A stretch of DNA of 64,000 nt from Sphyrna mokarran (lineage: Eukaryota), in NCBI GenBank assembly GCA_024679065.1, contig JAGIQG010000032.1, forward strand, positions 13,888,001-13,952,000. The letters run 5' to 3'. Of the stretch, positions 2,630 through 47,913 are shown one piece after another (position 1 is the first letter of the stretch; each line of letters starts with the position of its first letter). A model generated the notes under the pieces. That model ran no database searches. It saw only the letters and a program-made list of their open reading frames with translations, and had not been told where the DNA came from. Both the position numbers and the translations under genes were made by a program.

Positions 2630-5290
2630 TTGAACATATGAATGAGGAGGAGGTCACTTGGCCCCTTGGGCCTAATTCATCATTCAATAAAATCATGATT
2701 GTAACTTCGAATCTGCCTTTCTGCCTTGTCCCAATAGCTTTTCCACACTGTTTTTGTCAAGAATCTATCTGGCTCTGCCTTACAAATATTCAATGAGGAA
2801 GAGAGTTCTAGAGACTCACAACCTTCACAGAAGAAAATTCCCTCATCTGTCTTAATTAAGGGACCCCTTACTTTTAAACAGCTGTCCCTAAATTTAGATT
2901 CTCTTACAAGAGGAAATATCCTCAACACATTCAGTCTGTCAATATTCATCAGGATCTTAAAAGGTTTTGATCAAGTCACCTCTAAACTTTAGTGGATACA
3001 AACCTAACCTCCCCCAACCTTTCCTCATAAGACAACCTGCCCATTCCCTGCTTCTAACATATTTACATATTTCCTTAAAGGAGACCAAAACTGTGCACAA
3101 TACTCCAGACGTGGTCTCACTAATGCTGTGTACAGCTGAATCATAATCTTTTACAATCCATTCCCCTCACAATAAATGATAACATTCTATTAGTTTTCCT
3201 AATTCCTTGCTATACCTACATATTAGTCTCTTGTTATTCATGCACAAGAACAACCAGATCACTCTGCATCTCAGAACTCTGCAATCTCTCACCATTTAGA
3301 TAAGAAGCTTATTTTTATTCTTCCAGCCAAAATGGACAATTTCACATTTGCCTACATTATACTCCATTTGCCAGATTCTTGCATATTCATTTAACTATGA
3401 CCCTTTGTAGCCCACTTATGTCGTCTTCACAATTTGCTTTTTGACCTGTCTTTGCATCATCAGCAAATTTAGGTGCATCAGCCTTATTAAACTGCTCCTT
3501 AGTATCCAAATATGTGTAGGTTAGGTGTATTAGCCAAGGGAAAATGCAAAGTTACAAGGATAAGGTAGAAGGGAGGGATTGACCGGAATGCTTTCTCAGA
3601 GTTAGAATCGATGGGTCAAATGGCCTCTTGTGCACTATAGGAATTCTATGGTTATATGGTTCTAAGTCATTTATATAAATCGCAAAAAGTTAATGCCCCA
3701 GCATTGATCCCTGTGGCACACCACTCATTAATCCTGCCAACCAGAATAAGACCTATTTATGACAACTCTGTTTCTTGTTAGCTAGCCAATTTTCAATCAC
3801 TGCAATATATCATCCACTCTACAATGAATTTTCACTTTATGTAATAACCTTTGATCGGTACTTTATCGTATGTCTTCTGGAAATTAAATATAGTACACCC
3901 ATAGGTTCTCCTTTATTCACATGCATGACTCCTCCAGAAAACTCCATTGATTAAACATGATTTCTCTTTCACAAAACCATGCTGACTCTGTCCAAAGGCC
4001 TTGAATTTTCCCAACTGCCCTGCCATAATATCTTAAATAATTGCTTAACTGGTCTGTAGGTTTCTGCTTTCTGTCTCTCTTTTTCATTAAAGGAGTTACA
4101 TTTTCTTTCTTCCAATCTAAAGGGACCTTCCTCAAATCTAGAGAATTTTGGAGAATTAAAACCAAATATTTCAACCCTCTCATTGGCCATTTCTTTCAAG
4201 ATCTTAGGATCAAGCGCATCTAACCACAGGATTTGTCAGTCCCAACAATTTGTTTAATATCACTTTCCTGGTGATTGTAATTTTCCTTATTTCATCCCTC
4301 ACTTCCATTCCTGATTGATAGCTATCCCCTATAATGAAGACGGATGCAAAATACCTTTTCAATTCATTTGCCATAGCCCTACTTTCTATTACCAATTCCC
4401 AGATACACTCCCTACTGGACTAGTGCTCACTTTGCTAACTCTTTCCTTATTTGAATATCTATTGAAACTTGTACTGTTGCTTTATATTATTGACCAACTT
4501 TCTTGTATACTCTAATGTTTCCCTTCTTATCATTGTCATTCTTTGATATTCTTTATATTGTTTCCAATCATTTGGCCCACTATTCATCTTTGTGCAAATT
4601 TCTGCTTTATCTTTAAGTTTAATACTGTCTTTAAGTTCTTCTTAGCTTACTACAGAAAATGAGCCCTCCTTTTGGAATCTTTCATTCTCAGTAGAATGTG
4701 TCATATTTACTAGTTCACTTTAGCAACCTCTGCTTTCATACTCTCATTGTCATCTTTATTTAAATTTAAAATACTAGTTTTGAACTGATTCTTGTCTCCC
4801 TCAGATTGGATATAAAATTAAATTATATTATGATTATGAGAATCCAGAGGTGCCTTCACAGTGAGGTTATCAATTAATACTCTCTCATTATATGATGCAA
4901 TATAATCTCATATAGCCTACCCTCTGGTTGGCTCCAGAATATGTTGTTCTAATAAACTACCCCCAAAACATGAACTACCTTTGCCCATACATAGGTTAAA
5001 ATTCCCCATGATTATTGCAATAGCTTTCTTATAAGCTCCCATTATCTTTTCTTTTATACTTTGTTCTACTGTGTAATTGTAACTAAGGGCCTGTATGCAC
5101 TCCGCAAGTGATTTCTTGCTTTTGTAATTTCTCATCTCAAATCAAAACTGTTTTTACAAACTGCTTTCCTGAATTTAGGTCATCCCTCTCTCATACACTA
5201 ACACCATTATTAATTAACAGAGCTTCCCTCCACTCTTTCTTAACTTCCTGTCCTTCCTAAACATCACATACCCTTAACATCCAGGTCCCA
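2630..5290 (-). mobile_element. CR1-clade LINE fragment (ORF2 endonuclease/RT to 3' tail), decayed
   Basis: ORFs 2680-2949, 3917-4183 (VPLDWKKENVTPL), 3969-4199 (ETYRPV) and 4917-5135 (IIMGNFN) are typical CR1 ORF2 pieces. Confidence 0.85.
3480..3650 (+). mobile_element. 3' half of an HE1-like SINE nested in the CR1
   Basis: caaatatgtgtaggttaggtgtattagcc ... gatgggtcaaatggcctc...gaattctatg tail shared with the other copies. Confidence 0.7.
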
Positions 5291-6539: not shown

Positions 6540-7960
6540 ACAAGAGTTAGAGACTCTGCACAGACTTATCTTCTTTTAAATCAAGGTATGTGCACCTTCA
6601 TGGATAGATATAGTGGTGCATAGATAGTCTTTTGCAAAGCAATGCCACTTCATCTTAATTCATCCACATATGTACAAGTGACTATTAATTTTGTCCCAGA
6701 GTATAATTTCTAAATGAATTCCCAACCCGAGGCTAAATTGACTGGACTAAATATTCGAATCTTGTTTTGGCCGAGTGTGTAACATTTCTTCAGTCTTCTG
6801 GCATGACCATATATCTCTGCTTTTCCACCCCTAACTTCCCTCAATATCCTTGGGTGCATTTCGTCTGGTCCTGGTGACATAATTTTAAAATATAACCAGC
6901 CTTTATAAAACCTCCTCTTTCTAAACCCTGTGTTTTAACTGCCTTTTCTTTCACTATGTCTTCAGCAACACTTTTTTATTGGCAAAGGCAAGTGGCTCAA
7001 TTATAATTTTGCCTGCAAATCTTTTGCTCCAATTTTCACAAGCCAATTCATTTTCCATCTTACTTAGATTGGCCCTTCACTAAAAATTTTTTTACTTTAG
7101 ATTGTTTCTTTTCTGTCTTTGTTCATAGCTAACTTAAACTTATGATGCTACGATCACTCGTGTGGTACCTTTGCCAGAGCCTTGGTTCCATATATAAAAT
7201 CCCTCTGTGGCCCTAAATGGCCTCATATCTCTCTTTAGTAATTTTTTTTTACTGTTTTTATGCCTTTGGATTCTTATTTGATAGTCTCTTATCATACTTT
7301 CTCTTTGCTTCTCATTTCTTCTTTCACTTCTCCTCTGAACTTCCTAGATTCAGTTTGGTCTTCACTTATATTATCGAACCTTATATCTGTCTGACTTCTT
7401 ATCTCACAAAAACAAGTTAAAGCCCAACAGGTTTATTTGGAATCACAAACTTTCAGAGCGCTGCTCCTTCAACAGGTGATAAGGGAGCTCACTTTGCTCA
7501 CGTGATGAAGGAGCAGCACTCCAAAAGCTCGTGATTCCAAATAAACCTGTTGGACTTTAACCTGATGTGTGAGACTTCTTACTGTGCCCACCCCAGTCCA
7601 AGATTAGTATCTCCACATTCTACTCTCTATCATTTTATAAACACAGGGAGCTATGGTATTGTTTCTCCTAGCTTACCCCTTCATAAGAATATCCCTCAAC
7701 TATAGCCAAACCACCTCCTCTTTGGAGGCAGCAAATTATCCTGTTACAATTTTGCCTGCTGACTTTTCATTTCAATTTACCTGATCCAGATTTGCTCTCA
7801 TCCACTGAAATCGGCCTTTTTCTAATTAACTACATGATTGCCCCCTGTCCATTTTTCTACTAACCTAAACCTTACGATAGTATGATCATTGTCCTAAAAT
7901 ATTCCCCTATTGACACTTGATCCCACCTCATTTCCCAGAATCAGATTCAGTGATGTCTCT
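6540..7960 (-). mobile_element. Old CR1-like LINE fragments, interrupted by the Penelope-type palindrome
   Basis: Degenerate antisense CR1 ORF2 phrases (e.g. ccttgggtgcatttcgtctggtcctggtgac; tatgatcattgtcc). Confidence 0.55.
7402..7618. mobile_element. Penelope-like element pLTR inverted repeat (family 1) with two decayed minimal hammerhead ribozyme motifs
   Basis: Arms 7402-7479 and 7498-7574 are reverse complements around an 18-nt spacer. Their consensus is TCAC-CTGATGA-A-GGAGC-AGC-GCTCC-GAAA-GC-TC-GTGA. Confidence 0.8.
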
Positions 7961-24036: not shown

Positions 24037-25730
24037 AGAACATAGTACAGTACAGGCTCTTCAGCCCTCAATGTTGTGCTGAGTTATGTCCAAACCCAAG
24101 ATTAAGCTATCCCATTCCCTATCATTCTGGTGTGCTCCATGTGCCTATCCAATAATCACCTGAAAGTTCCTAAAGTGTCCAACGCCGCTATCACAGCAGG
24201 CAGTGCATTCCACATCCCAACCACTCTCTGAGTAAAGAACCTACCTCAGACATCCCTCCTATATCTCCCACCATGAACCTTATATTTATGCTCCCTAGTA
24301 ACAGGTACATCCACCTGAGGAAATAGTCTCTGCATGTCCACTCCATCTATCCCCCTCATCATCTCATAAACCTCTTAAGTCGCATCCTCCTCTCCTCCAA
24401 AGAGAGGAGTCCTAGTTCCCTCAGCCTTTCCTCACAAGACCTATTCCCTCCCTCCCTCCGCCCCCCCCCTCCCAAAATACCGAGCAGAATCCTGGTAAAT
24501 CTCCTCTGCACTTTCTCCAATGCTTCCACATACTTCTTATAGTGAGCTGACCAGAACCGCATACAATCTTCCAAATGTGATCTCACCAAGGTCCCGTACA
24601 GTTGCAGCATAACCCCATGGCTTTTAAACTCAATCCCCTGTTAATAAACACACTATAAGCCTTCTTCATGGCAACACATTCCTTAGAACCCTGCTGTCGC
24701 ATTCAAGTTTGTCCTACCAAAATGAATCACTTATCAGGGTAAACTCCATCTGCCACTTTTTTGCCCAGCTCTGCATCCTATCAATGATTCTTTGCAGCCT
24801 ACAAAAGCCCTCCACCTCATCCACTACTCCACCAATCTTGATGTCATCAGCAAATTTACTAACCCACTCTTCAACCACCTCTTCCAAGTCATTGATAAAA
24901 ATCACAAATAGCAGAGGACCCAGCACTGACCCCTGCAGCACCCCACTGATAACTATCCTCCAGTCTGAAAATTTTCCCTCCACCACCACCCTCTGTCTTC
25001 TATGAGACAGCCAGTTATTTATCCAATTGGCCAAATTTCCTTCTATCCCACACCTCTGCTTACTTTCCTCATGAGCCTACCATGGGGAACCTTATCAAAT
25101 GCCTTACTAAAATCCATGTATGTGACATCAACTGCTCTATCTTCATCTACACACTTAGTTACCTCCTCAAAGAATTCAATCAAATTTGTGAGGCAAACCT
25201 TACCCCTCATGAACCCGTGCTGACTATCCCAGATTAAGCTGCATCTTTCCAAATGGTCATTTATCCTATCTCTTAGGACCCTTTCCATTAACTTACCACC
25301 AAAGTACGATTAACTGGCCTATAATTACCAAAGTCATTCCTATTTCCTTTCTTGAAGTGAGGATTAGTATTCACCACTCTCCAGTCCTCTGGCACAATCC
25401 TCCTGACAGTGAGGACTCAAAGATCAAAGCTAAAGGCTCCGCAATCTCATTCCCTGCCTCTCAAAGTATCCTAGGATGTATCCCATCTGTCCCAGGGGAC
25501 TTATCAACCCTCAGGTTTTTCAAAATTACTAATATATCTTCTCTCAGAACATCTACCTCCTCCATCCTATCAGCCTGTACTACACTCATCCTCAAAACAT
25601 GGCCCCTCTCCTTAGTGAGCACTGAAGAAAAGTATTTCATTCAACTATCTCTTCTGACTCCATGCACAAGTTCCTACTACTACCCTTGACTGGCCCTAAC
25701 TTCACCCTGGTCATTCTTTCATTTCTCTTG
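24037..25730 (-). mobile_element. CR1-clade LINE (HER1-like) 3' 1.7 kb, RT domain, frameshifted
   Basis: ORFs 25043-25288 (SQHGF...CLTNLIEFFEEVT...YMDFSKAFDKVPH), 24714-25034 (GVLQGSVLGPLLFVIFINDL...KFADD) and 24359-24610. Confidence 0.95.
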
Positions 25731-40902: not shown

Positions 40903-42304
40903 ACTGGTTGCTCTTACAAGCTTACTGAAGTTTATCGTTTGGAAATCTGAATGCCAACAGCAACCAAAGGCTTTATTAATTTGTGGACAGTCAGCAAACT
41001 ATATAATGTACTGCAAGATGAGGTTTCTCCACCCTGGGCATATGATAAAGTATAAAATTGTTTTGACATCAAGTCTACTTTGATCCAATACGTCTCTTAA
41101 CACATGACTCTAATAGAGGTGGAGATTTAGAATAAACTAAGCTTGGACATAATATAGATTTTATCTTAGATTCATAAGACAGATTTTACACTGAACTATG
41201 ACTGTGACAAAACTTCAGTGTTATCTAAAACCTAAAATTTCTTTAATTCCATCACAAAAAGCAAAGAGTTGAAAATTAGATTCACTTTCATAAATCATCT
41301 CACACCTTAAATGATCCAATTATTCAAGAATTTAGTCGAATGGCCTACTTCTGTGATCATAATGACTCTAAGCCAAAGTCAGAGGATCAGAGTAAATGGA
41401 GTAGTGAAGATAGAGAAGAAGGTTCAGATGAGGCAAAATGAAATGTTGAATTTGATATATTGGAGGAAGAAAAAAACTGAACGAGAACAGGAATGCACGC
41501 AAGATCAGAAGAGGGCACTGGGGATTTGGACAGGTTAGAGATGGAGCTCTTAGATGATGATCAGAGAATTCAGGAGACTGATGAGCAAAGAGGTAAAGCC
41601 AAAATAGATAATGTTCTGGAGGTGAAAGTAAAAGGCCTTGGTTATGGACAAAGGTATGAAATTTGAAGTTCAATTCTGGAATTAAAAGCAATACGAAGAT
41701 TTTACACCTTCAGTTTTAGTCTGATTAAGTAGTCAGGAGGAAAATATACTCATAGCTTGGAGTTTTTGGCAGGAGACTATAGGTTAATTTTGATGTTCAC
41801 AATGTTCAAGTGGAGGGAACAATGGCTCATCTATGACTTGATCAAAGAAAGGTATCTTAACATGGATTTTTGGGAGCTGAATCAACCTGGAATTTTAATA
41901 CACACACAGAAATTTACTTCATCCCATGAGAAAATGAATCTGAAAGGAAACATATGACAGCAAAATAATGAGGGACAGGAATGAATTCTTGCAGGTCAGG
42001 AAAAGAAATAATTCTTAGAAGTCCATTTGCTATATTATGACTGATCAGCAAAGAACGATATGAGAGAAAAGTGTCGCAAAGACAGGTCATGGAGAAGATG
42101 TTTGGAAGTTATTGATACCATCACCAGGGTGCACTGAAACCGTCACTGTAATATGTTCATTAAAATCTTGGTACAATAACACGGAAAAATAAAGTTCTCT
42201 TCACTTCAAATGGAAATTCAAGATTGGTCTTGCATCATTATTGCAGGCCATGGGGCAAAAGCTCAATCAGAAAAGGAGGCGTAACAGAATTGAACAATGA
42301 CACA

Positions 42305-44660
42305 CAGAACTATAGAATATTACCTTCACTAAACCAACTTGTGAATTCCAGATGTCCACTATCCTCTGGTTGAAGATTATCCTCATGTCCCCTCTAATCC
42401 TTCCACCAATAACCTTACACCTGTGCTCCTTGATAATTGACCATCTGGTAAGGGAAACAAAGCATTCCTGCCTACTTTATCTAGACCCCTTCTAATCTTG
42501 TAAGTCTCAATTAAGTCTCCTCTCAGTCTACCTTGCTCTAATCAAAGTAACTCCAGCCTATTGAATCTTCCTTCATAGCTGAAATTCTCCAGCCCTGGCA
42601 ACATTTTTGTAAATTGCCTTTCCATAACAATTACGTCCTTCCTCTAATGTGGTGACCAGAATTACATACAAAATTCTAGCCATAGCCTAATCAGCTTTTA
42701 TACAGTTTGAGCACTGAAAATTACATCTGTTTTTGTATTCTATACCTCATTCAATAAAGGAAAGCATTCCATTTGCTTTTGTTATCACTATTCACCTGCT
42801 CAGCCATCTTCAGAGACTTGTGAACAATGACCCCTAAGTCTCTCACTTCTCATCCCCTCCCAGTATCCTCCTGTGTATTTCCCTGCTTTGTTTGTCCTCC
42901 CCAAGTACATTATCTCTCACTTTTGCAGATTGAATTTCTTCGCCATTTTTACACCAATTCAGTCAAACCACTGATAATTCTGGAGTTGGCAGCTATCCTT
43001 TTCACAACTACATGGGGTAAACTTTTGTGTCACCTGTAATTATGCCTTCCACATTTAAGACTACATCCCCAAAATATACAAAAACAGCAATGGTCAAACA
43101 CTGAGCCCTGTAGAATCTCACTGGAAATCACTTTCCATTTGCTAAAACCTCTACTGACCGTTATCTTTATTTCCTGTCAACGAGCTGGTTTTAAATCCAA
43201 CTCACCACTTTCCCCTGTATCCCATAGGCTTTTACTTTTCTGACCAGTCTATCGTTTAAGACCTTGTCAAATACTTTACTGAAATTCATGTAGACATCAT
43301 CCATAGCAATATCCTCATCAACCCTCCTTGTTACTAATTTACTTACATTTTTTGAGGAAATAAGACGTGAACTTCCCTGACAAATGATGTTGACTATCCC
43401 CAATTAATCAGTTCCTTTCCTGTAATAAATATTATGTCTAATATTTCATAACCCTCCTCTTTAAGAAACATAGTGAAAGACATGCTCTTGTGATTAAGTG
43501 GAAATGGTCAAGATGTTCAGGTTTTGAGATGTTTGGATCACCAATAATCTGTCCTGGTCCCTCAACACTGACCTATAGTTAAGAAAGTCCACCAACATCT
43601 CTAATTTCTCAGGAGGCTAAGGAAATTCGGCATGTCCATTCTGACTCCCATCACTTTTTGTAGATGCACCATAGAAAACAACCTTTTGGATGTATCACAG
43701 CTTGGTTTGGTTCCTGCTCTGACCAAGGCTGCAAGAAACTATGAAAGGTCATGAATGAAGCCCAATCCATGATGCAAACCAGCTCCTATCCATTGACTCT
43801 GCCTATACTTTCCGCTACCTCAGAAAAGCAGCCAGCATAATCAAAGGTCTCAGCACCCTGGACATTCTCTCTTCAACTTCTTCTGACAGGAAAAAGATAC
43901 AAGTCTGCAAACATGTACTAATTGACTCAAGAACAGCTTCTTCTCTGCTGCCATCAGACTTTTGAATGGATTTATCTTACATTAAATTGAACCTTCTCTT
44001 CACCCTGTCTGTAATTGAAATACTATATTCTGTACCCTCTCCTTTCCTTCTCCCCTAATGTACTCTATAAACAGTATGTTTTGCCTGTACAGTGTACCCA
44101 CTGTATCCCAAGGCATGTGACAATAATAAAATCAAACCAGAAATTTAATTAGAATGTATGTATCATTCCTTTCCACTGTGAAGACAAAGTACTCATTAAG
44201 AACCTCCCTACATGTTTTGCACAAATAATACTGTACACCACTGATAGTACCTGCCCTTTCCTTGGTTATCCTCCTGCTCTTAGCATACTAATAAAACATC
44301 TTGGGTTTTCCTCAATTATACATGCCAACATTTTAATATCCTGTATTTGCTTTCCTAATTTCCTTTATTTTTACTTCATTCCTGTATTTTCTATACTCCT
44401 CTAGGCTTTCTTCAGTATTAGATTTTTTTTTATGGCTGTCATAAACTTTTATTTTTCTGCATTATTTTACCTTGTACACTTCTGGATAACCCAGGGGCTC
44501 TTGATTTGGCAATAACACCATTTTTCTTTGGTAGGGGTCAAGTCTACCAGCGCCTCTAAAATCTTGTTCTTGAATGCCTCCTGTTGATCTCTCACTATAA
44601 CCAGTCCATTTCACCAGATCACCTCGCAACTTTATAAATTTGTTTCTTATCAATTTAGAA
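42305..44660 (-). mobile_element. CR1-clade LINE fragments interrupted by a Rex1 insertion
   Basis: ORF 43191-43403 (DDVYMNFSKVFDKVLNDRLVRKVKAYGIQGKVVSWI). Confidence 0.85.
43530..44138 (+). mobile_element. Rex1/Babar-clade LINE 3' end
   Basis: ctcaggaggctaaggaaattcggcatgtcc = LRRLRKFGMS; tgtagatgcaccatagaa = CRCTIE; tgtatcacagcttggtttgg = CITAWF(G); ctcaagaacagcttcttc = LKNSFF. Confidence 0.85.
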
Positions 44661-47659
44661 ATGTTTCCGTTATGCTGGATAAATTAGTATGCTCTGCACA
44701 CTAAGTTTCTGTTGACTGTGAGAGAAACTAGACTATATATGATGCTATACAATTCTGCAGGCTCTGGACTCCATGTTATGAAATCATAATTTATCTATTC
44801 CAAAAGCAAAGGAAATCATCATTCCATTTAAACATGTTAATTCTGGTGCAGCTCATTTTATGGCCAACTTAACAAAAGCCATAAAAAATAATCAATATTT
44901 TGGGGCGCCTAATAGTTATTTATTACAGTATTCACTCAGTTTGTTGCATCCATTTAATCCAGAATTTTAAGATGAGAGTAAAATTCCTGAAGAAGAATGG
45001 ACAAGTTGAAACTCAGGGGAATCTCATTACTTTTCAGCAATAAATTGGAAAAGTTTTGCATTTTTAATTCTCATGTTGATCAGACGATCGATTAATCATC
45101 GTCAGTGCAACTGAAAGACTGCAGACGAGAATAGACTAATATCTGCTTCAGCATCTAAAACAGCTAATCAATTGATAAAGTAGAACGTCTCAATGAATAG
45201 GTGAACAGAAAAGAACTCTGGTTCCAGTCATTTGCCAGGAGAGAATTACAAGAAAATCAAGGCAGCCAACTATTTACACCCAACATCTGCATTTCCCACT
45301 GATCATTTGCCCTATAAAATAATTCAACACAGAAACATAACACCAAAACTGCTGAAGCTGCATTAAAAACATTGTAATACATTTTTTTTCAAAAAACTTA
45401 AACTGTTCTACTAAAATAAATATAAATAATGACGGCCATTTCTAATTCATGCAATGCTATTTTCTATCTACAGAAAGCATTCCCAAATCAGCAAATGACT
45501 ACACTAACATAGAAAGAACTAATTGAAGAGAAAGGCAGTTGCTAATAAGTTCAATAGGTCTGTCCGAAAGTAAGTGGGTGAGGGACCGCATGCTTCTGTG
45601 TTTGAACAGCAGTTCTACTCAACACTACGCCTCTAACGTGTCTACATTCCTCAGCAATGCAAATGTGTCTAATACAATCAAGAGAGTGAAACAAGAGCAT
45701 GCACATCTTACCTTGATGAACTAATAATTTGATATTTTAAGAGGAAATGAATGGGAGAAAGAGCTGGTATTAGATCAAGTTATTTTTGATGGCAGATTCC
45801 ATTAGTAAAATGTTAGCATGTAGCTTTTCTCAGAAAAAAAACTTGTAATCTTTAGCTTTCCAGCCAGTAAGCACCAGATAGCTTTTGACAAAGTTGCTGC
45901 CGCCACCAAAGCTGTGCAAAGCAGCTAATGAGAAAAGTACTTCAGATGTTTTGTCTTCCCCTCAGCAGGCTGGGATGAATGATATCAGGGTTGTGTGTTG
46001 CAAGGAAACAAAAAAGTCAAATGAAATAGCACCAATGACATTTGTGCACTCTCCTCTTCCCAAACATCTGTAACCAATGTGATTCAGAAGAAAATCAGTC
46101 CAAAAGCCACCTCAGTTGAGCACAATAAACCCAGTGCACTCTGTTTCCAAAATGGTAACACTTTAAGACTTTAAAAAGTAAACTATTGTTTCCTTTTCCC
46201 TTGTTCTATCCAATCAACCAATAAAGGACTGAAACATTTCATCTACAATTTGGTGTAAATGTTCACTAAATCCCATTGGTTCCCATTCCAGGCTTGTAAC
46301 TATGGATCGTCTGCCATCAATTTCATTTTGAAGTTGGGTGGGTGGCTTATAATCAAAAAAACTTGCAAAAATTTTAATTATGTCAAACTCTTAGGTGTTT
46401 TGTTGTAGTACTATTGGGTATGTTCAATTTCACTGGAAGGTCAGTGACAAGATTAAGAGCTGGATGGTTGATGCTCAAAGATTCCATCGTCTTCCTCATC
46501 TCACTGAACTGCTGAAGCATGAGACAATACTCATAAAAAAACATGATGCTCGATGTTGTAGGTAGAATTAAAAAAAGGTTGAAAATTAAACTTAAACAGT
46601 CAGTGAGTTCTGTTTCTTACAGCAGTATTTTCTATAAGAGTTTAGAACCAATGGTGGCAACTTGTCAAATGCCAGCTGAGCATTTTAAGGTTGCCAGTTA
46701 CATTGCACCATCTAATTTGTGGTTTTATTTGATCATCATCAGAATGTGCTGAGAAAGCTGTCAAATTTTCTTTTATCTGCATATTTTATGGTAGAAAAAA
46801 GTTCTTGGACAGCAGGGTCTGGTAATGGTTGCCATTTACATCCCCTGGATAGATCTTTTGTTTATTTACTGTCCATTAACACCCTCCTTTTGCCTTGCAC
46901 CATCATCCATTTTATCATTCAAATACTTCTGGTCTCTGCCCTAACAGAGATCTCGTCCTTCCTTCTTTCAATCCCACCAACCTTTTGCCTTTTGTTTCCT
47001 GACTCAGGTGCTGCTTATAAACAGTTGTATAATTTCTTTCAGTTCTGTTGAAAGATCATCAGTCCAAAATACTACCTTTGTATCTCACTCCACAGTTGCT
47101 GCCCGAGCTTTTGAATGCTTCCAGTATTTTGTCAAGTAATTGGCAGCCCTGTAAAGACATAGTTGTGCCTGCTCTTTGAAAAAAAATTAATTAGTCCTAC
47201 TCTCCTGCTCTTTATCTATAGCCTTGCAAAATTTTCCTTTTCAGATATATATCCAACTTTTTTGAAAGTTACTATTGAATCTGCTTTCACCACCAGTTCA
47301 GGCAGTGCATTCCAGATCATAGCAGATGATTGTGTAAAATAAGGCATTTTACATCGGCTTCTTTTGTCAATTATCTTAAATCAGTGCCCTCTAGTTACCA
47401 AACGTACAGCAATTTTCAAAAAAAAAATTCCATTTGCAATGCTGTCAGCATAAGAAGGATATACTTCTTATAAATAGAAGTGATCCTCCTATTGACAAAT
47501 TATGAGAGAAAGCAGCTTATTTCTTTTAGACTGCAATCCAATGTAAAATAAATGCATCCTGGAGAAAGACTGCCATCGACTAACTGTTAAGAAAAAGGCA
47601 AGGAGAACACATTAAAATGCTCCCAAAAGTTATGGATTTCATACTTTTAAATCAAATTT

Positions 47660-47851: not shown

Positions 47852-47913
47852 TCTGAAGAATCTATGAAGTATATTACAAGTGCACCAATGCTGAGAGCAA
47901 AGACCAAGACCAC
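47852..47913 (-). CDS. KCNMA1: KCNMA1 (Slo1/BK channel alpha subunit) internal exon encoding transmembrane segment S1 (human exon 3 equivalent), 62 bp, phase 0 in / phase 2 out
   Basis: Minus strand reads ...tttcttctgtctttttcag|GTG GTC TTG GTC TTT GCT CTC AGC ATT GGT GCA CTT GTA ATA TAC TTC ATA GAT TCT TCA GA|gtaagta = [20 protein letters not shown]+GA. This matches the vertebrate Slo1 S1 sequence as I recall it. It has a canonical AG acceptor with polypyrimidine tract and a consensus GTAAGT donor, and is too short for the ORF track. Confidence 0.97.

Follow-up and report, generated by a model that had tools for sequence, protein, structure and literature searches.

The window analysed here, a stretch of 64 kb (64,000 nucleotides) of the Sphyrna mokarran genome, contains a palindrome that lies within an intron of KCNMA1. 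The minus-strand exon listed in Table 1 shares 20 identical residues with the BK channel alpha subunit (E 0.0013), and the same contig has two further BK_channel_a exon matches, 178 and 205 kb downstream on the minus strand. Since exons lie on both sides and on the same strand, the palindrome is intronic, as the first-pass annotation had stated, and its left arm is the sense copy. The closest identified exon is 40 kb away. The ungapped inverted repeat (7413-7479/7498-7564) has 67-nt arms that are 87% complementary and separated by an 18-nt spacer. A gapped alignment of the two arms covers 77 positions with 11 differences. The minus strand of 7390-7590 was predicted to fold at -119.3 kcal/mol (z -16.6), and none of 200 shuffled sequences folded equally well. 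The first-pass extent of 7402 to 7574 is too short: the right arm runs to about 7618, and a tail of 35-40 nt had been overlooked.

Table 1. Features at the palindrome and the host gene exon (window coordinates; pLTR positions in family numbering)
Feature	Position	Strand	Basis or remark
Older host interspersed repeat, interrupted by the element	7255..7815		
Candidate target duplication, left copy	7396..7405	+	8/10 identical to 7618-7627
Left arm, inverted pLTR copy	7402..7479	-	Alignment to family, +1 to +78
Left hammerhead motif, decayed minimal type I	7443..7479	-	Comparison with family majority
Junction between both 5' ends, 18 nt	7480..7497		
Right arm, pLTR copy with long end	7497..7618	+	Family positions 0 to +122
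Right hammerhead motif, decayed minimal type I	7498..7534	+	Comparison with family majority
PLE tail	7583..7618	+	Stretch between the family's 3' end classes, +85-90 and +123-125
Candidate target duplication, right copy	7618..7627	+	Pairs with 7396-7405
KCNMA1 coding exon	47854..47913	-	BK channel alpha match; fixes host gene and strand

Both arms were compared with the majority sequence of the repeat family described below, numbered from the T of TCAC in hammerhead stem I (+1). The left arm differs from it at 9 of 78 positions and has a short end without a tail; its 3' end falls at +74 to +78, short of the usual +85-90. The right arm shows 11 differences in 122, and many of the differences in the two arms are CpG decay. 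The hammerhead-like sequences read at first pass were recovered as quoted, on the plus strand of the right arm (7498-7534, TCAC-gTGATGA-A-GGAG-CAGCA-CTCC-aAAA-GC-TC-GTGA) and on the minus strand of the left arm (7479-7443, TCAC-CTGtTGA-A-GGAGC-AGC-GCTCt-GAAA-Gt-Tt-GTGA), and their lesions do fall at different positions. The right motif carries C3G at 7502, G12A at 7523 (a CpG site) and one stem II mismatch, and its ancestral cut position would be after 7530. The left motif carries A6U at 7472 and C to U changes at C11.1, C16.2 and C17. The core is intact in neither arm. No third copy of the motif and no PLE coding sequence were found within the 64-kb window. By eye, the 18-nt junction weakly resembles the upstream sequence of the element.

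The element interrupts an older host repeat whose paralogous copies are continuous across the insertion site, with 5 of 7 paralogous loci matching both flanks. The candidate target duplication has a low score (2) and is not significant alone, and its left copy overlaps the arm by 4 nt; the two copies occupy the same columns of the host repeat in the alignment, and it is plausible from this alignment that they represent a worn target duplication. A micro-inversion, suggested by a 9-nt direct repeat (7393-7401/7573-7581), is less likely because the left copy of that repeat aligns with the host repeat. Contigs from one other organism (X2) match both flanks and end at the element edges, with a right-flank/tail overlap of fewer than 31 letters, a pattern that hints at an old shared insertion. 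Contigs from other organisms (X4, X6 and X13) share the left flank no further than 7352, with no bridging joint among the matches listed.

The palindrome belongs to a repeat with thousands of copies. Searching the 2.77-Gb genome for the right arm yielded 2,392 first-look candidates, 40 of which were scored, and a pattern for the intact core gave 358 exact matches genome-wide (reversed control, 0). Copies continue upstream into an untranslated stretch of ~210 nt, a stop codon and GIY-YIG-like sequence and, in locus L083, on to RT motifs. L083 has a pLTR with 86% identity to the right arm, preceded by sequence that shows 58-79% identity to the protein of L113 (E 9e-114), a locus of a young sister subfamily; L083 joins an old pLTR to an L113-type protein and therefore ties the two subfamilies together. 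The young subfamily has 3,133 exact intact-core matches genome-wide, its copies are about 93-96% identical, and its frames reach 806 aa (L113:301-2726, L120:1296-3074). The 806-aa frame of L113, which has a hammerhead motif at both ends of the ORF, matches RVT_1 (E 8e-9); the 593-aa frame of L120 matches RVT_1 and also GIY-YIG (E 4e-4, 21 bits, below the Pfam cut-off of 22.6). In the young subfamily one ORF encodes RT and, at its C-terminal end, GIY-YIG, and the pLTR lies downstream of it; this arrangement is decayed in the old subfamily, in which three L083-derived fragments had no Pfam match and no full-length copy was found. The pLTR occurs at both ends with a tail of 30-40 nt, as seen from bimodal 3' ends and from inverted copies at 61 of 89 loci. 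The young subfamily has a DKG motif and, in the L120 frame, a C-X4-C-X2-C linker between RT and EN; a CX2-5CxxC linker at this place defines Neptune/Nematis (PMC8557442). By this linker motif the family would be a Neptune/Nematis-type EN+ PLE. Two further features of young copies were noted: the stem II loop varies widely between copies, and at L091:3358-4109 a young PLE insertion has two GIY-YIG ends in opposite orientation that are joined via short tandem repeats of the GIY-YIG segment.

With the motif placed in a pLTR downstream of RT and GIY-YIG coding sequence, the first-pass proposal of an insertion from a ribozyme-bearing Penelope-type family was borne out, and we are nearly certain that the palindrome is a Penelope-like element insertion. 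The further statement that the retroelement family is now inactivated suits this copy and its old subfamily but not the young sister, whose 3,133 intact cores and long frames stand against it and which may still be active. Short, palindromic and present in many copies, the element could at first sight pass for a MITE-like DNA transposon with terminal inverted repeats that resemble hammerheads by chance; this is refuted by the upstream continuity into 3'UTR, GIY-YIG and RT sequence, and with unequal arms, variable 5' truncation and covarying stems against it as well, we give it practically no credence. Non-LTR retrozymes are likewise non-coding and PLE-derived with a type I hammerhead (bioRxiv 10.64898/2026.07.22.740005), and the same preprint reports retrozymes and PLEs in one chondrichthyan. 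Their units are head-to-tail tandems capable of forming dimers, whereas the present pair is head to head on opposite strands; a retrozyme needs at least two complete head-to-tail units, and the window has two opposite-strand copies only, so this candidate was rejected.

The family majority was taken from 26 copies, chosen by their 3'UTR and irrespective of the core, out of a set of 32; six copies were excluded, three because they came from earlier sets or had a deletion and three because they were interrupted. It reads stem I TCAC/GTGA, CTGATGA, an extra A, stem II GGAGC/GCTCC, GAAA and a palindromic AGCT, with the cut after C. The consensus thus has the intact CUGAUGA and GAAA core that was predicted at first pass. 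The CUGANGA and GAAA core with a UH cut site is present at the family level, as are the extra nucleotide 9/10.1, the G10.1-C11.1 pair and a palindromic helix III (AGCU self-duplex, -2.5 kcal/mol). G12, a CpG position, is G in 12 and A in 10 of 24 copies of the majority set, and position 17 is C or A in 20/20 variants tabulated. Between subfamilies, TCAC/GTGA in stem I gives way to TTGC/GCAA, and GGA/TCC in stem II to GAC/GTC or GGC/GCC. In stems I and II 93.6% of cells are paired, with 21 double-sided changes (4/7 pairs, 18 sequences); none of 500 shuffles was as good and slid controls gave 19-41%, in a set gathered by a regular expression with fixed core letters, which tests the stems only and in which cells are not independent events. 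The two subfamilies together hold at least 3,491 exact matches to intact minimal-hammerhead cores. We concluded that the family carries an intact minimal type I hammerhead motif, its ribozyme activity being assumed from structure and published relatives. The majority shows the traits listed for the minimal type I hammerheads of metazoan PLEs in PMC4209133, with a helix II of 5 bp here against 7-8 bp in the Schistosoma families; the present locus differs from the hammerheads of that study in that its two motifs are only 18 nt apart and both mutated. Sharks are not named in the sections of PMC4209133 considered here.

Both copies in the KCNMA1 intron have lost core bases. A6 and G12 are essential positions of the hammerhead core. 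C3G abolished cleavage in the Anolis element PAc (PMC11167929). The core mutations are likely, judged from these substitutions, to abolish cleavage in both copies. When the motif is folded in isolation the left arm keeps the pairing of stems I and II, and GAAA is also retained, so one might ask whether this arm still acts as a ribozyme in the KCNMA1 pre-mRNA, by itself or together with its partner arm. This is highly improbable: A6U is present, the stem III palindrome is weakened, the window has no second sense-strand copy, and single minimal motifs showed no cleavage in PMC4209133. In the predicted fold of the locus, in which one arm pairs with the other, stems I and II have a probability of 0.000. 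The arm duplex in the KCNMA1 pre-mRNA is predicted to exclude the ribozyme fold, so that most likely the locus is inert. The first-pass idea that the two arms together reconstruct a ribozyme is sound insofar as it reflects independent decay of two copies, but with one arm on each strand and the two predicted to pair together, there is no complementation between them and no joint ribozyme or dimer. Old dispersed arms had changed at 18/287 core non-CpG positions (6.3%), 144/1647 non-core positions (8.7%) and 58/164 CpG positions; selection on the core was not seen in these copies, and all 11 core bases were kept in 5 of 29 unselected arms. Rfam gave no hammerhead match at the locus, only generic miRNA hairpins far below the cut-offs, and none on the intact copy L051; Rfam is therefore blind to such a minimal form.

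The ends of old-subfamily copies were classified at 89 loci (L031-L060 and L126-L185). These were 90 of the 358 core-intact places, less one duplicate; the 90 were the first of 100 places listed, with one omitted because it lay at the edge of a contig and the final nine left out. Short 3' ends (+76 to +95) were found at 44 loci, long ends (at least +105, mode +125) at 36 and others at 9, and the ORF has its first in-frame ATG right at the long end. An inverted upstream piece was present at 61/89 loci, and 52 of these pieces score at least 40 and reach +76. Leaving out three with an unclassifiable forward end, 49 classifiable inverted pairs remained: 47 long+short, 2 short+short and no long+long (Fisher p 6e-12). 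Among the first 100 of the 3,133 young-subfamily matches listed, there were 15 opposite-strand neighbours no more than 6 kb apart; all were long+short, each with an exact target duplication of 11-16 bp, chance overlap included. With both subfamilies combined, just one of the two ends bears a tail in 62/64 head-to-head insertions, and no insertion has two tails. In the right-arm search loci, which were selected for the long arm, and in one further set, every nearest pair was long+short; five other combinations in those loci arise across adjoining separate insertions. Target duplications scoring at least 8 were found at 17/47 old-subfamily pairs against 2/154 control pairs; a duplication was seen at only 2/19 solo copies. 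We also observed a GUUGGA/UCCAAC stem that encloses the short end site in both subfamilies (L045:1534-1626, L113:343-440); conserved RNA structure around the two end sites was unsupported (z -1.08 and 0.31). L052 and L053 (C2:16657349 and 16659411) are a local inverted duplication: the two copies, at a distance of 2 kb, have opposite orientation and the same upstream flanks.

Tight palindromes akin to that in the KCNMA1 intron occur at 24 of the 89 loci, and the palindrome shape is therefore routine and needs no selection. This bears on the possibility of host co-option, with the hairpin serving KCNMA1 as intronic dsRNA (an editing substrate, a source of small RNA or a splicing modulator), a reading that would draw on the very stable predicted duplex on both strands and on the X2 contigs suggesting an old shared insertion. 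The arms differ at 11/77 positions and share no derived change but one CpG site, as under free drift, the distance to the nearest identified exon is large, and the Rfam matches are generic and below cut-off; we consider co-option very unlikely. The palindrome is instead, in all probability, an old head-to-head insertion of two 5'-truncated PLE pLTRs, one of them tailed, with decayed copies of a hammerhead motif that is intact in the family.

How the two ends came together can be approached from the arms themselves. Subfamily marks are common to both arms at 54/80 against 41.8 expected (p 0.003), and young arms show 0.86 differences within loci against 2.7 between loci (14 pairs, one having been dropped for a microsatellite); shared non-reference alleles between old arms (19 against 14.4 expected, p 0.10) were not significant. 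In 16/47 pairs it is the untailed arm that extends further 5', by 15 nt or more, and the 5' ends of the two arms lie within 15 nt of each other in 25/47. The 5' start was within ~10 nt of +1 in 60/89 forward arms and 28/52 unselected inverted arms of the old subfamily, and in 4/26 young copies (p 3e-6 versus old). This truncation hot spot is the first base of hammerhead stem I and lies ~30 nt below a TATA-like motif in the old subfamily, the young subfamily being without such a motif, which suggests that the hot spot may reflect run-off at the pLTR transcription start site. In the TATA-bearing old subfamily, both cDNAs would then in many cases end by run-off at the hammerhead's first base, likely the pLTR start, and yield ribozyme palindromes such as the present one.

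PLE protein in vitro cleaves and extends both strands and uses two RT start sites one tail apart (PMC11167929, in which the PLE tail was defined). We give a little better than even weight to a twin-priming route for the present locus. The two strands of the target would be cut by the element protein at positions about 11-13 nt from each other, and each target 3' end would prime a cDNA on the element RNA, one cDNA starting at the long site (+125, the first ATG of the ORF) and the other at +86, the short site. Synthesis of the two cDNAs would end near +1, they would be joined in head-to-head orientation, and the two arms would later decay neutrally, mostly at CpG sites. Against this route stand the allele test at p 0.10, the unusually short left arm and degenerate target duplication of the present locus, the solo copies with duplication (2/19), on which the model is silent, and the lack of a strand difference in vitro: the account in PMC11167929 gives start site choice as alike on both strands and does not report coupling. 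A single priming event on the same element followed by fold-back or self-priming, with an endonuclease cut at the pLTR/tail border giving the short end, is a real though less probable alternative. It likewise predicts one tail per insertion and accounts for junctions that are often near-symmetric or show microhomology (L223, L225 and L228) and for the closely spaced 5' ends in 25/47 pairs; self-priming on an antisense template has been proposed (PMC3846280; also PMC8557442). Against it, the untailed arm in 16/47 pairs begins too far 5' to have been copied back from the tailed cDNA, and both end classes map to RT start sites in PMC11167929; antisense-RNA self-priming is compatible with the data. 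It is an even call whether PLEs use obligatory coupled twin priming, in which one protein dimer would make cuts ~12 nt apart in the two target strands and use each of two RT start sites once, one per strand, leaving a tail at one end only of every inverted insertion.

Minimal pLTR hammerheads, opposite-strand pairs, inverted pLTRs and one-sided tails are already in print. The one-tail rule was given qualitatively for Neptune/Nematis-type EN+ PLEs (PMC8557442) and is counted here (62/64). PAc, a Poseidon element of Anolis, likewise has 3' ends of two classes, which differ by the tail and lie downstream of the pLTR hammerhead (PMC11167929); its ORF starts in stem II and RT starts 111-118 nt inside the ORF, whereas here the first in-frame ATG is at the long end itself. 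Poseidon elements have no linker zinc finger. Adineta Penelope insertions likewise have head-to-head inverted pLTRs, an optional 31-bp tail on one of them and target duplications, which are 8-10 bp there (PMC3846280) and 11-16 bp in young copies here; in contrast to Adineta, the insert here consists of two pLTR ends only. We found no account of this family or of a counted long+short rule in the literature, though repeat databases, supplements and subscription papers may hold one.

Elsewhere in the window, a 185-bp inverted repeat pair (60975-61158/62541-62725) is 97% identical with its copies ~1.4 kb apart and no long open frame between them; it may be a non-autonomous DNA element or have arisen by local inversion. 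An older inverted pair (50042-50265/51235-51452) is 72% identical over 229 nt. Broken frames on the minus strand, at about 24200-25640, 42270-44700 and 2700-4640, resemble by eye LINE reverse transcriptase fragments.

The locus itself is an ordinary fossil of known architecture, and its modest interest lies in the family-wide end rule. The origin of inverted pLTRs and tails in PLEs has been called unresolved in the published work considered here, and the near-strict long+short pairing with a duplication of fixed length is a sharp constraint on the PLE insertion mechanism. The genome holds many ready-made long dsRNA hairpins and at least 3,491 intact cores that are missed by Rfam. If coupled twin priming is true, this genome would hold thousands of records of such events, and the rule could be tested at scale.
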